Of a DNA stretch of 47,120 nt, positions 14,264 to 45,434 are shown in pieces. Below the pieces are notes generated by a model. It had not been told where the DNA came from and did no database searches. It worked only from the letters and a program-made list of their open reading frames with translations. The translations under genes were made by a program, and so were the position numbers. The stretch lies in the UHGV virus genome UHGV-0008871; one strand, given 5' to 3'. Source of the stretch: a virus. The first letter of the stretch is position 1, and each line of letters starts with the position of its first letter.

Positions 14264-14931
14264 ATATCTACGAAAGAATTGATGGCAGCAAATACCGAAA
14301 TATTTGGGTAGTTGGCGATCTGCACGGATGCTACACGAACCTGATGAACAAACTGGATACGATTGGATTCGACAACAAAAAAGACCTGCTTATCTCGGTG
14401 GGCGATTTGGTTGATCGCGGTGCAGAGAACGTTGAATGCCTGGAATTAATCACATTCCCCTGGTTCAGAGCTGTACGTGGAAACCATGAGCACATGATGA
14501 TTGATGGCTTATCAGAGCGTGGAAACGTCAATCACTGGCTGCTTAATGGCGGTGTCTGGTTCTTTAATCTCGATTACGACAAAGAAATTCTGGCTAAAGC
14601 TCTTGCCCATAAAGCAGATGAACTTCCGTTAATCATCGAACTGGTGAGCAAAGGTAAAAAATATGTCATTTGCCACGCCGATTATCCTTGTGATGAATAC
14701 GAGTTTGGAAAGCCAGTTGATCATCAGCAGGTAATCTGGAACCGCGAACGAATCGGCAACTCACAAGACGGGATCGTGAAAGAAATCAAAGGCGCGGACA
14801 CGTTCATCTTTGGTCATACGCCAGCAGTGAAACCACTCAAATTTGCCAACCAGATGTATATCGATACCGGCGCAGTGTTCTGCGGAAACCTCACATTGAT
14901 TCAGGTACAGGGAGAAGGCGCGTGGGCATAA
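14260..14931 (+). CDS. ninI: NinI Ser/Thr protein phosphatase (lambda PPase-like), 223 aa
   Basis: Metallophosphatase motifs GDLHG, GDLVDRG, GNHE; no ninH between ninG and ninI. Confidence 0.85.
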
Positions 14932-15440
14932 GAGAACTAAACCTCACCAAAGAACAGCATGAGTGGCTGAATGGCTGGCTTGAACTGTGGGGCGCATGGG
15001 TTTATTCAGGTCGTCTGGAAAAGCGCATGAGCAGCGTAATAGCGAAGTTCATGGAGAGCGTAGAGCCGGGAAGAGTTATGACAAGGCCAATGTGTAATGA
15101 TGATGATGGAATGTTGATTTCTCAGGTCGTCGATTCCGTCATGTACATTGACAAGAAAGCCTTTGGCATCCTCCTAAGCTACTACGCTCATGGTTCATCT
15201 AAGCGAGCAATTGCATCCTACTATCACGCGACTGCAAAGCCACGCAAGATGTGTGGACGTGGTGGAGAGGGATGGAGAAAACCTTCACTGGCAACCTGTA
15301 GAAACGAAATTGACGACATCCTGAAAGCGTCATTATTTGTTTTATACCAGCCAATGCAAAATGCTTTTAAAATGCGTAAACGTGTTGAGAAAGTTAAGCA
15401 TGTTGCTGTTAAAAGCCTTGACATGCAATTATCCATTTAG
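14922..15440 (+). CDS. Putative late-gene antiterminator Q, non-lambda type (172 aa)
   Basis: Last gene before the late-operon leader and lysis cassette; not lambda Q in sequence; called by position only. Confidence 0.45.
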
Positions 15441-15502
15441 CCATAATTAGAAGGTAAGCTGCCATTAGTGACTCTTAAGTTGCAACGGTGGCTTTTTTAT
15501 TT

Positions 15503-15577
15503 GGGTCAGTCGTATAAAGGTCATTACGGAAGGCTGTTAACCTTCTTATCGTGGTTCGAGTCCACGCTGTCCCGCCA
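15503..15577 (+). tRNA. Phage-encoded tRNA, anticodon GUU (Asn) by manual fold; slightly non-canonical
   Basis: Hand-folded cloverleaf: acceptor gggtcag/ctgtccc (one mismatch), anticodon stem gaagg/ccttc, loop ctGTTaa, T-arm cgtgg-ttcgagt-ccacg, CCA encoded; D-stem only 3 bp. Confidence 0.5.
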
Positions 15578-15582
15578 AACAT

Positions 15583-15658
15583 GCTGTTTTAGCTCCAATG
15601 GTAGAGCGGTCGCCTTGTAAGCGAATGGGTAGCGGTTCAAGTCCGTTAAACAGCACCA
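15583..15658 (+). tRNA. Phage-encoded tRNA, anticodon UGU (Thr) by manual fold
   Basis: Perfect 7-bp acceptor gctgttt/aaacagc, D-stem gctc/gagc, anticodon loop ctTGTaa, T-loop ttcaagt, CCA encoded. Confidence 0.65.
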
Positions 15659-15745
15659 TAACTGAGCCGTAGCCACTGGCTATCCTGAATTCATCAGTGA
15701 TAGTTACGCTGCGGCCTTCTACACATGATCTTCGTGAAAGCGGGT

Positions 15746-15781
15746 GGCAGGAGGTCGCGCTAACAACCTCCTGCCGTTTTG
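15746..15781 (+). terminator. Rho-independent terminator (tR'-like) in the late-operon leader
   Basis: 10-bp stem ggcaggaggt/acctcctgcc, 10-nt loop, followed by gtttt. Confidence 0.75.
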
Positions 15782-15900
15782 CCCGTGCATACCGATCACG
15801 AACAAATCTGATTACTAAACACAGTAGCCTGGATTTGTTCTATCAGTAATCGACCTTATTCCTAATTAAATAGAGCAAATCCCCTTATTGGGGCTAAGAC

Positions 15901-16224
15901 ATGAAGATGCCAGAAAAACATGACCTGTTAGCCGCCATTCTCGCGGCAAAGGAACAAGGCATCGGGGCAATCCTTGCGTTTGCAATGGCGTACCTTCGCG
16001 GCAGATATAATGGCGGTGCGTTTACAAAAACAGTAATCGACGCAACGATGTGCGCCATTATCGCCTGGTTCATTCGTGACCTTCTCGACTTCGCCGGACT
16101 AAGTAGCAATCTCGCTTATATAACGAGCGTGTTCATCGGCTACATCGGTACTGACTCGATTGGTTCGCTTATCAAACGCTTCGCTGCTAAAAAAGCCGGA
16201 GTAGAAGATGGTGGAAATCAATAA
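15901..16224 (+). CDS. S: Lambda S holin/antiholin (S107 with dual-start Met1-Lys2-Met3)
   Basis: [67 protein letters not shown]… matches recalled lambda S; upstream hairpin ccccttattgggg at 15881-15893. Confidence 0.95.
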
Positions 16225-16684
16225 TCAACGTAAGGCGTTCCTCGATATGCTGGCGTGGTCAGAGGGAACTGATAACGGACGGCAGAAAACCAGAAATCAT
16301 GGTTATGACGTCATTGTTGGCGGAGAGCTATTCACTGATTACTCCGATCACCCTCGCAAACTTGTCACGCTAAACCCCAAACTCAAATCAACAGCCGCCG
16401 GACGCTACCAGCTTCTTTCCCGTTGGTGGGATGCCTACCGCAAGCAGCTTGGCCTGAAAGACTTCTCTCCGAAAAGCCAGGACGCTGTGGCACTGCAACA
16501 GATTAAAGAGCGTGGCGCTTTACCGATGATTGATCGCGGTGATATTCGTCAGGCTATCGACCGTTGCAGCAATATCTGGGCTTCACTGCCGGGGGCTGGT
16601 TATGGTCAGTTCGAGCATAAGGCTGACAGCCTGATTGCAAAATTCAAAGAAGCTGGCGGAACGGTCAGAGAGATTGAGGTATGA
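16208..16684 (+). CDS. R: Lambda R endolysin (lytic transglycosylase), 158 aa
   Basis: [51 protein letters not shown]… matches recalled lambda R. Confidence 0.95.
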
Positions 16685-44501: not shown

Positions 44502-45434
44502 TTATGCCGGGTTTTTATAATTTTTCTTAATGTTTTCCGCACGTTCTGCTTTTTGGCGTGCTTCTGCTTTACGCTTATTGCTCATGTCGTTACGAATCTG
44601 TGCATGACTCATTAACGCGAAGATAAAGGTGCCGCCGCAGATGTTCCCCGCTAAAGTAGGTAGTGCGAAGGGCCAGATGAAATCGCTCCAGTGCAGCGTG
44701 CCGTTAAACACCAGATAGAGGATTTCAACAGAACCGACAACGATGTGGGTGGTGTCACCCAGTGCAATAAGCCAGGTCATCAATATAATCACCACAATCT
44801 TTGCCGCACCCGCAGCAGGAAACATCCAAACCATAGTGGCGATCAGCCAGCCGGAAATGATCGCGTTGGCAAACATCTCGCTGGGGGTGTTCTTCATCAC
44901 ATCCATGCCGATTTTGACAAATGCATCGCGAGTTTCTTCATTGAAGATAGGCATATATTCAAATGCCCATGCAGCAATACCTGTCCCGAGAATATTACCC
45001 AGCAGCACGACGCCCCATAATCGCATAAGTAAGCCGACGTTGCTCATTGTCGGTTTTTGCATGACGGGTAGTACCGCAGTCACGGTGTTTTCGGTAAATA
45101 ATTGCTGGCGGGCCATAATGACGATAATAAAACCAAAGGTATAACCGAGATTCTCCAGTAAGAAGCTGCCTGGCACTCCTTCCAGTTCGACATGAAATAT
45201 CCCTTTTGCCAGTAGCGAAGCGCCCATCGACAGACCCGCCGCAATGGCTGACCACAGTAGCGCCATTGCGTCGCGTTCCAGCTCTTTTTCACCATCCTGG
45301 CGGATATGCTCATGAATTGCCATCGCCCGGGAGGGGAGTCGATCTTCATCTATTTCTATTTTTTTGCCGCGCTCTTTTTCTTCGCTCTCAACTTCAATTT
45401 CGTCGCTGTGTTGATCAATTTTGTCGTTGTCCAT
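44502..45434 (-). CDS. yfdC: Formate/nitrite-transporter-family inner membrane protein YfdC (host gene), 310 aa
   Basis: Multi-TM protein matching my recollection of E. coli yfdC, the chromosomal neighbour of argW. Confidence 0.8.
   Translation of the reverse strand: MDNDKIDQHSDEIEVESEEKERGKKIEIDEDRLPSRAMAIHEHIRQDGEKELERDAMALLWSAIAAGLSMGASLLAKGIFHVELEGVPGSFLLENLGYTFGFIIVIMARQQLFTENTVTAVLPVMQKPTMSNVGLLMRLWGVVLLGNILGTGIAAWAFEYMPIFNEETRDAFVKIGMDVMKNTPSEMFANAIISGWLIATMVWMFPAAGAAKIVVIILMTWLIALGDTTHIVVGSVEILYLVFNGTLHWSDFIWPFALPTLAGNICGGTFIFALMSHAQIRNDMSNKRKAEARQKAERAENIKKNYKNPA

Follow-up and report, generated by a model that had tools for sequence, protein, structure and literature searches.

Positions 15782–15900 of the virus genome UHGV-0008871, a stretch of 47,120 nucleotides referred to here as the window, form the 3′ half of a conserved, untranslated leader module of the lambdoid late operon and lie directly 5′ of the holin gene S. 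Within this leader we find an inverted repeat (A/A′) that is predicted to form an imperfect hairpin of ∼42 nt, H1, and a third repeat (A2), ∼30 nt downstream of H1, which is likewise complementary to A′ and overlaps the sdi stem-loop at the start of S. The reading that we favor, at a probability of about 0.45, is that of a structured leader RNA in which H1 sequesters A′ and leaves A2 and the sdi/dual-start region to fold independently, and the choice between the two starts of S is insulated. H1 is supported by the non-randomness of its arms, a consistent predicted stability, conserved arms around a hypervariable loop and G·U-compatible polymorphisms, but is not proven; its folding in vivo and any effect on translation of S are what we infer from these data. 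Coordinates of all features are collected in Table 1.

Repeats and predicted folds upstream of S

The original prediction, made from the sequence alone, had described two inverted repeats interleaved in the order A-B…A′-B′, and all of the quoted strings are present in this order at 15800–15851. The chance level was established with 5000 dinucleotide-preserving shuffles of 15782–15900. A perfect inverted repeat of at least 9 nt arose in 2.2% of the shuffles, and A/A′ is non-random. Because inverted repeats of at least 7 nt were seen in 25% of the shuffles, B/B′ is unremarkable and by itself at chance level; the interleaved 9 + 7 combination arose in 0.06%, a rarity that is carried by the 9-mer. 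Overlooked at that stage was A2, which over 13 nt is complementary at 92% to GGATTTGTTCTAT (15831–15843, A′), with the single mismatch becoming a G·U pair in RNA. Repeats of 13 nt with at most one mismatch were found in 0.1% of the shuffles. Because A2 is also complementary to A′, A′ has two mutually exclusive partners, A and A2. The last two C residues of A2 are, in addition, the first two of the sdi stem.

In a 178-nt context the minimum-energy fold was H1, with A:A′ extended to 10–11 pairs and a few outer pairs taking up part of B′; the repeats can therefore form a simple nested hairpin, which had been held to be impossible. When 15790–15850 was folded alone, a free energy (ΔG) of −16.3 kcal/mol was obtained (z = −4.3). 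In a 133-nt context the optimum was A′:A2, with pairing probabilities (P) of 0.82 for A′:A2, 0.18 for A:A′ and 0 for B:B′, and the outer sdi pairs fell to P ∼0.07. Taken in isolation, the helices were calculated at −7.9 (A:A′), −4.2 (B:B′) and −14.2 kcal/mol (A′:A2). Enforcing A′:A2 lowered P(sdi) in the window ensemble, and the alternative pairing of A′ is predicted to compete with the sdi stem. The earlier suggestion of alternative RNA structure could thus be upheld in part: mutually exclusive pairings (A:A′ and A′:A2) were found, but the partners differ from those proposed.

The same suggestion had extended to a pseudoknot-like structure. An H-type pseudoknot with A:A′ and B:B′ formed together is, in our judgment, highly improbable. 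The interleaving is real and the 9 + 7 combination rare, but the interleaved arm order is found at the sequence level only and the rarity stems from the 9-mer. Across 45 aligned leaders (see below), B:B′ was paired in 53.7% of cells, a value reached by 87 of 500 column shuffles, and lambda-type leaders carry disruptive B′ variants that are not compensated (AGCAATC in L018, AGTAACC in L076 at 4 loci, and AGAAATC in L130). The apical stem of H1 already uses B, and of the three linkers (A–B, 1 nt; B–A′, 15 nt; A′–B′, 4 nt) the last would probably be short for crossing a helix of 9–10 bp. The P of 0 for B:B′ refers to the ensemble of nested folds, to which ViennaRNA is confined. We conclude that B/B′ most probably arose by chance in the lambda lineage, to which B:B′ is limited, and that a pseudoknot is not supported.

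The small hairpin that had been placed immediately 5′ of S was correctly identified and is the known sdi stem-loop of lambda. It has the properties of the lambda holin initiation region, being a stem-loop 5′ of the start whose 3′ arm is the Shine–Dalgarno sequence for Met1. Bläsi, Chang and Young described how translation of the lambda dual start is controlled through sdi, as summarized in bioRxiv 10.1101/2025.05.14.654169. At 98.3% identity, the elements of the window are lambda's own, comprising the ccccttattgggg hairpin, the UAAG Shine–Dalgarno sequence, the intragenic hairpin and the Met-Lys-Met start, and the dual start that had been proposed was confirmed at 15901, where two in-frame starts lie one Lys codon apart. 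In lambda, sdi (nt −21 to −7) controls access of the ribosome to the GGGGG Shine–Dalgarno sequence for Met1 and, together with the GGGGG and UAAG Shine–Dalgarno sequences and the intragenic hairpin, partitions initiation between Met1 and Met3 (bioRxiv 10.1101/2025.05.14.654169). The window sdi is identical to that of lambda except for a G to C change at −7 (GGGGC versus GGGGG), and H1 and A2 lie upstream of the described sdi region. Among relatives sdi covaries (CCCC/GGGG, CCUCAC/GUGAGG, and CCUCC/GGAGG), and in all leader types A2 has its CC in common with the sdi stem. The gene corresponding to S is annotated as antiholin/holin in lambda imm434 and P22 and as S/holin in lambda and relatives.

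Conservation of the leader among lambdoid phages

In a search of phage records, lambda (J02459, 45015–45245) matched window positions 15730–15960 over the full length at 98.3% identity, and comparable matches were found in 190 phage records. Pairwise alignment placed the beginning of lambda homology just past the tRNA-Thr gene (∼15661), from where it runs unbroken down to S; this conserved leader module is common to lambda, P22, HK620, HK97, ES18 and Sf6-like phages. The lambda-type 119-nt stretch was present in 1110 of 5426 complete E. coli genomes (∼20%), always unannotated. At least eight different dual-start N termini follow the module (e.g. MKMPEKH, MKNMADK, MKMDERY, MFRMNT, MYRMDKI, MNKMPYK, and MKRMPDK), and no fewer than three Q types are found upstream of it, whether tRNAs are present or not; before the unrelated holins of PS34, Oslo and SE1, the leader alone is kept at 94–97% identity. 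It is transcribed within the Q-antiterminated late mRNA, always directly before a lysis cassette.

Leaders for comparison were taken from phage records and from loci encoding S relatives in genomes and IMG/VR, and were also collected with DNA patterns anchored on A plus A′, on A only, or on an upstream hairpin, T, only. For comparison of the helices, 45 distinct leaders were aligned and pairing was scored per cell. A:A′ together with the apical stem was paired in 86.7% of cells, with an invariant 3′ arm and with A-to-G changes (giving G·U) at three positions of A. A′:A2 was paired in 100% of cells, with A-to-G changes at four positions of A2. The first filter for A2 admitted purine changes only and was biased in this respect, and A2 was retested with anchors outside A′ and A2. 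Exact TGGATTTGTTC (A′) was then recovered in 44 of the 45 unique leaders of the A-anchored scan, as was GAACA[A/G]ATCC (A2; 44/45). The scan anchored on hairpin T gave exact A′ in 59 of 61 leaders, and the A2 variants were GAACAGATCC (30), GAACAAATCC (27), GAACAAACCC (1) and GAGCAAATCC (1). The A-to-G changes in A and A2 are compatible with G·U pairing in RNA of the + strand; on the opposite strand they would give C·A mismatches.

The RNAalifold consensus for 25 diverse leaders consisted of H1 and sdi, with a covariation term of just −0.15 kcal/mol and one compensatory pair, located in sdi. A single topology of H1 was predicted in eight leader types, with ΔG values between −10.9 and −19.0 kcal/mol (z = −1.5 to −4.3). 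Variation within the module, whether of sequence or of length, is greatest in the apical loop of H1 (7–9 nt) and in the spacer between A′ and A2 (26–32 nt between the 10-mers). In this spacer, L195, L228, L242, L243 and L260 carry a fourth repeat, CAACAACCACGTTAA, which nearly duplicates A together with the 5′ strand of the apical stem of H1 (GAACAAACCACGTTAC) and is a further potential partner of A′.

Conservation of this kind could also arise at the level of DNA. The record of phage CUS-3 (CP000711) annotates precisely this block, 241 nt upstream of S, as a misc_feature “bsq3; boundary sequence”, and the leader agrees with that label in being a non-coding block at the border of the Q region and the lysis module, 94–98% identical amid mosaic phages. 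The conserved blocks would then be homology patches for the exchange of lysis and regulatory modules, or would be homogenized by exchange, and would have no RNA role; PMC3029335 cites the notion of boundary sequences that are short and conserved. Mosaic junctions coincide with the repeats, the leader type switching at A in L208 and L297, at A′ in L099 and L316, and at the border of A2 and sdi in PS34, Oslo, L170, L191 and L234. This location is partly circular evidence, since junctions can be detected only where sequence is conserved. The occurrence of one leader before so many dual-start N termini and the lack of covariation in H1 or A′:A2 are also in line with exchange at the DNA level. Recombination needs homology and not self-complementarity, however, so that the reverse-complement blocks (p ∼0.02 and 0.001) are left unexplained, as are the coincidence of the variable parts with hairpin loops and the G·U-compatible polymorphisms in A and A2. 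On balance we consider a pure boundary sequence a serious but doubtful alternative.

The near invariance of A′ in the same genomes in which sdi covaries fits two readings. Either one strand is constrained by two partners, such that three coordinated changes would be needed, or the 10-mers are recognized as sequence. In the latter case the three copies (four in some phages) of GAACAAATCC/GGATTTGTTC would serve as recognition sites at which a protein or a trans-acting RNA binds, either to the DNA or to the leader RNA. The 10-mers are near-invariant in primary sequence while the adjacent sdi covaries freely, the spacers of some phages hold the extra copy CAACAACCACGTTAA, and in the favored fold A2 would be single-stranded and exposed directly ahead of the ribosome-binding region. 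There is no known candidate for the binder, nothing was found at the Rfam gathering score, and the association of the module with several Q types argues that recognition is not Q-specific. The spacing of the A′ and A2 10-mers (26, 28 or 32 nt), which varies by more than half a DNA turn, argues against phased cooperative binding to DNA. Recognition of the 10-mers as binding sites thus appears rather improbable.

Energetics and weighing of the proposed structured leader

Ensemble free energies were calculated for 87 distinct leaders with either A:A′ (state 1) or A′:A2 (state 2) enforced. The difference, state 2 minus state 1, was +2.6 ± 2.6 kcal/mol (range −6.5 to +9.8), and H1 plus sdi was favored in 83% of the leaders. 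Values for individual leaders were +3.2 (lambda), +2.7 (HK620), +1.2 (P22), −0.3 (this window) and −1.2 kcal/mol (L110), the two states of the window being predicted as essentially isoenergetic. The near-zero difference in the window coincides with the sdi 3′ arm GGGGC (GGGGG in lambda and most relatives), a variant shared by L110. With this variant the sdi stem is shorter, and the balance of the leader is predicted to shift in favor of A′:A2. Tuned bistability as a general property was rejected on account of the wide scatter of the differences. According to these calculations A′:A2 may be thermodynamically reachable in many leaders without tuning, and a switch is possible.

For the structured leader RNA that we favor, the following course can be envisaged. 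H1 would form first in transcription and sequester A′. A2 would be left unpaired, and the sdi and dual-start initiation region would fold independently, such that the choice between holin and antiholin starts would be shielded from variable upstream sequence (Q alleles, tRNAs, and morons). Were H1 opened, A′ could pair with A2 and the base of sdi would melt, which would constitute a latent switch.

It is also conceivable, albeit unlikely, that the three repeats A, A′ and A2, along with the 3′ arm of sdi, make up a four-segment attenuator-like translational switch before many unrelated dual-start holins, in which A′ would alternate between A and A2 and so open or close the antiholin Shine–Dalgarno sequence. 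Attenuator-type leaders rely on mutually exclusive pairings (1:2, 2:3 and 3:4 in trp; translational attenuation in ermC), and mutually exclusive helices involving the ribosome-binding site were found here. The corresponding segments would be A, A′, A2 with its CC, and the GGGG Shine–Dalgarno sequence; pairing of 2:3 would exclude both 1:2 and 3:4, the last of which holds the ribosome-binding site. The leader differs from attenuators in that neither a conserved leader peptide nor another sensor was found, the energies are untuned and there is no covariation, so that the likeness rests on predicted pairings. No conserved leader open reading frame was present in the leaders of relatives, where the candidate frame has stops and frameshifts. 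If such a switch exists, the timing of lysis in lambda and in phages like P22 would have an upstream input so far unrecognized, which could be the transcription speed of Q-modified RNA polymerase, leader or tRNA processing, temperature, or a trans-acting factor on the exposed 10-mer.

Several observations weigh against the insulated, structured leader. No compensatory (double) substitution in H1 or A′:A2 was found in four independent leader collections, nor was there in them any leader with an altered A′ and a compensating A or A2, the element being too conserved for a covariation test. Because of this, pairing is not proven by covariation, and the case for an RNA function of H1 is built on conservation, on the variability of the loop and on thermodynamics. 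The G·U argument is itself weak, since the A and A2 arms are rich in purines and by our count ∼8 of their 10 possible transitions would be compatible with pairing anyway. Position 8 of A is changed from U to C in 32 of the 45 aligned leaders, which forces a bulged A in H1. The scattered energy differences give no evident sign of a tuned bistable switch, with most leaders firmly in the H1 plus sdi state, and in L203 the module lies ∼65 nt from the next start codon. S homologues at 81–83% amino acid identity have unrelated leaders and yet keep an sdi-like hairpin; the module is therefore not needed for sdi function. These leaders, and the equally unrelated ones of homologues at 58–67% identity, carry no information on H1. 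Finally, phage Sf6, which has a holin identical to lambda S105 except at one residue, acquired changes in the holin coding sequence, nin and PR when evolved for faster lysis, and no leader changes were reported (PMC5630979). This is mild evidence that single leader changes offer no easy route to earlier lysis.

Upstream architecture and relation to known systems

Table 1. Features of the holin leader and its surroundings in the window
Feature	Coordinates	Strand	Description
Q-type gene	14922–15440		Upstream of the leader
Late promoter	15418–15447		σ70-like, strong (pR′-like); TTGACA-18-CATAAT
tR′ analogue (candidate)	∼15458–15500		Hairpin and U6 run; aligns with lambda tR′ region
tRNA-Asn(GUU)	15503–15577		tRNA search and Rfam match
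tRNA-Thr(UGU)	15583–15658		tRNA search and Rfam match
Conserved leader module	15661–15900	+	∼240 nt; lambda ∼44,946–45,185; pairwise alignment with lambda
Hairpin T	15746–15780	+	GGCAGGAGGT/10-nt loop/ACCTCCTGCC, then G and UUUU; lambda 45031–45065
Hairpin H1 (predicted)	15800–15841	+	A arm 15800–15808 (extendable to 15810) with A′ arm 15832–15840 (extendable from 15829)
Repeat A	15800–15808	+	GAACAAATC
Repeat B	15810–15816	+	(t)GATTACT; 3′ part is the 5′ arm of the H1 apical stem in the nested fold
H1 apical stem (predicted)	15812–15816 with 15823–15827		UUACU with AGUAG; loop 15817–15822
Repeat A′	15832–15840	+	GATTTGTTC; perfect 9-nt complement of A
Repeat B′	15845–15851	+	AGTAATC; lambda-type leaders only, in the hypervariable A′–A2 spacer
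Repeat A2	15870–15882	+	ATAGAGCAAATCC; core 10-mer GAGCAAATCC (15873–15882); direct repeat of A
sdi stem-loop	15881–15893	+	ccccttattgggg (CCCC UUAUU GGGG); 3′ arm is the Shine–Dalgarno sequence for Met1 (antiholin S107)
Holin gene S	15901–16224	+	Met1 15901 (S107), Met3 15907 (S105); 107 amino acids, MKMPEKHD…
Intragenic hairpin (predicted)	∼30 nt inside S		GCCGC…GCGGC; minimum-energy fold

The late-promoter region is of the phage L/phage 21 type. Tandem octamers, AATTATCC ATTTAGCC (15427–15442), sit between the promoter hexamers, and identical octamers have been proposed as a Q-binding element in phage L (PMC8022706). Both tRNAs lie within the late leader, downstream of the tR′ analogue and ahead of the conserved module, an arrangement also seen in phage Oslo. 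The late operon of Sf6 likewise starts with Asn and Thr tRNAs (PMC8022706); lambda and P22 have no tRNAs at the corresponding site, with the module still present. In an Rfam scan of 14800–16400 (E-value ≤1) the two tRNAs were the sole matches, with no further family at the gathering score, and a snoU85 match in the leader (15 bits versus a gathering score of 41) was dismissed as spurious. Genes R and Rz come after S.

Hairpin T had been taken for a tR′-like terminator, a designation that did not hold: it lies ∼300 nt downstream of the promoter, is followed by four U only and aligns to lambda 45031–45060, and the hairpin with a U6 run that aligns with lambda tR′ is the better analogue. The hairpin itself (15746–15775) consists of 10 bp with 100% complementarity (ΔG = −27.7 kcal/mol, z = −4.6), and with its 10-nt loop and four U it was not called in a terminator scan.

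A role of these elements in processing or stability was considered as well. A cut in the U-rich single strand after hairpin T, or excision of the tRNAs, would leave H1 as a 5′-terminal protector of the late mRNA, while hairpin T would protect the 3′ end of the upstream fragment. Stem-loops at the 5′ end of the ompA type act as mRNA stabilizers, and the leader resembles them in that a long mRNA has a stable hairpin close to its beginning, with a U-rich single-stranded stretch ahead of the hairpin; it differs in that H1 has an internal position in the primary transcript and would become terminal only through processing. Two tRNAs lie directly upstream in the window, Oslo, Sf6 and L, a conserved single-stranded segment (GAUUUGCUCAUGC or GUUUUGCCCGUGC) separates the two stable hairpins, and the module is retained in L203 in spite of its distance from the start codon. 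Processing would leave A2 and its overlap with sdi unexplained, however, and lambda and P22 keep the module without tRNAs at this site. We therefore view this explanation as improbable.

Hairpin T showed further peculiarities among the leaders. Its central base pair is hypervariable in otherwise near-identical leaders (L013–L147; GGCA[G/A/T]GAGG/CCTC[C/A/T/G]TGCC), in paired and mismatched form alike. Its loop occurs inverted (GGTTGTTAGCGCAACC versus GGTTGCGCTAACAACC), e.g. in lambda-type L018 and L110 and in majority-type L171, L205 and L243, which looks like template switching at a quasi-palindrome. An open frame runs across the hairpin at 15697–15849 on the + strand (CTT CGT GAA frame, …LRE(S/D)GWQE(V/T)ALT(T/A)SC…) and starts with ATG in many P22-type leaders (MAGLREDGWQETALTASCLICSCL*); the position that varies in the 3′ arm is a third codon position, at a Ser for which all four TCN codons occur. 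This candidate mini-open reading frame was rejected as probably non-coding, as lambda-type variants carry premature stops (e.g. L069, L109, L120, and L124), 1-nt frameshifts were seen (e.g. L080, L088, L095, L110, and L115), and the ATG is out of frame in ∼12 leaders.

A covarying GC-rich hairpin preceded by an A-run was noted just upstream of the CTTCGTGAA block in P22 (L003, ∼675–700; CCCAG…CTGGG), L203 (∼570–590; CCCGC…GCGGG) and ES18 (CCAGC…GCTGG). Read on the opposite strand, this hairpin is followed by TTTTCTTTT and would be a leftward-facing intrinsic terminator. Contigs of ∼3.5 kb in non-enteric “genomes” (Cohnella, Brevibacillus, Pedobacter, Flavobacterium, and metagenome-assembled genomes) begin with TTTTGGAATTTTTT repeats joined to lambda inside hairpin T (L021, L023, L026, L030, L032–L034, L047, L055, L064 and others), and look like sequencing-control lambda DNA left over in assemblies.

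Of the elements described, the sdi hairpin and the boundary-sequence annotation are already known. The lambdoid boundary sequences of HK620 and CUS-3 reportedly go back to Clark et al. 2001. They are the same DNA as the module, conserved across mosaic phages with junctions at the edges, but the label is a concept of sequence conservation and recombination only and is silent on the hairpin, the three-copy arrangement and an RNA function. No description of H1, A2 or the overlap of A2 with sdi was found in the literature searched, in which key older papers did not turn up.

The S gene of lambda is the textbook model of lysis timing, and its start-site control has been dissected to single nucleotides, from nt −21 on only. 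The presence of a near-invariant hairpin and a third repeat just upstream, before many holins, suggests that this part of the lysis leader is under selection. Should the module act as an insulator or a switch, this would explain a constant block amid shuffled surroundings and would provide a portable part for phage engineering; should it have no role at the RNA level, it would be a clean example of a recombination “linker.”

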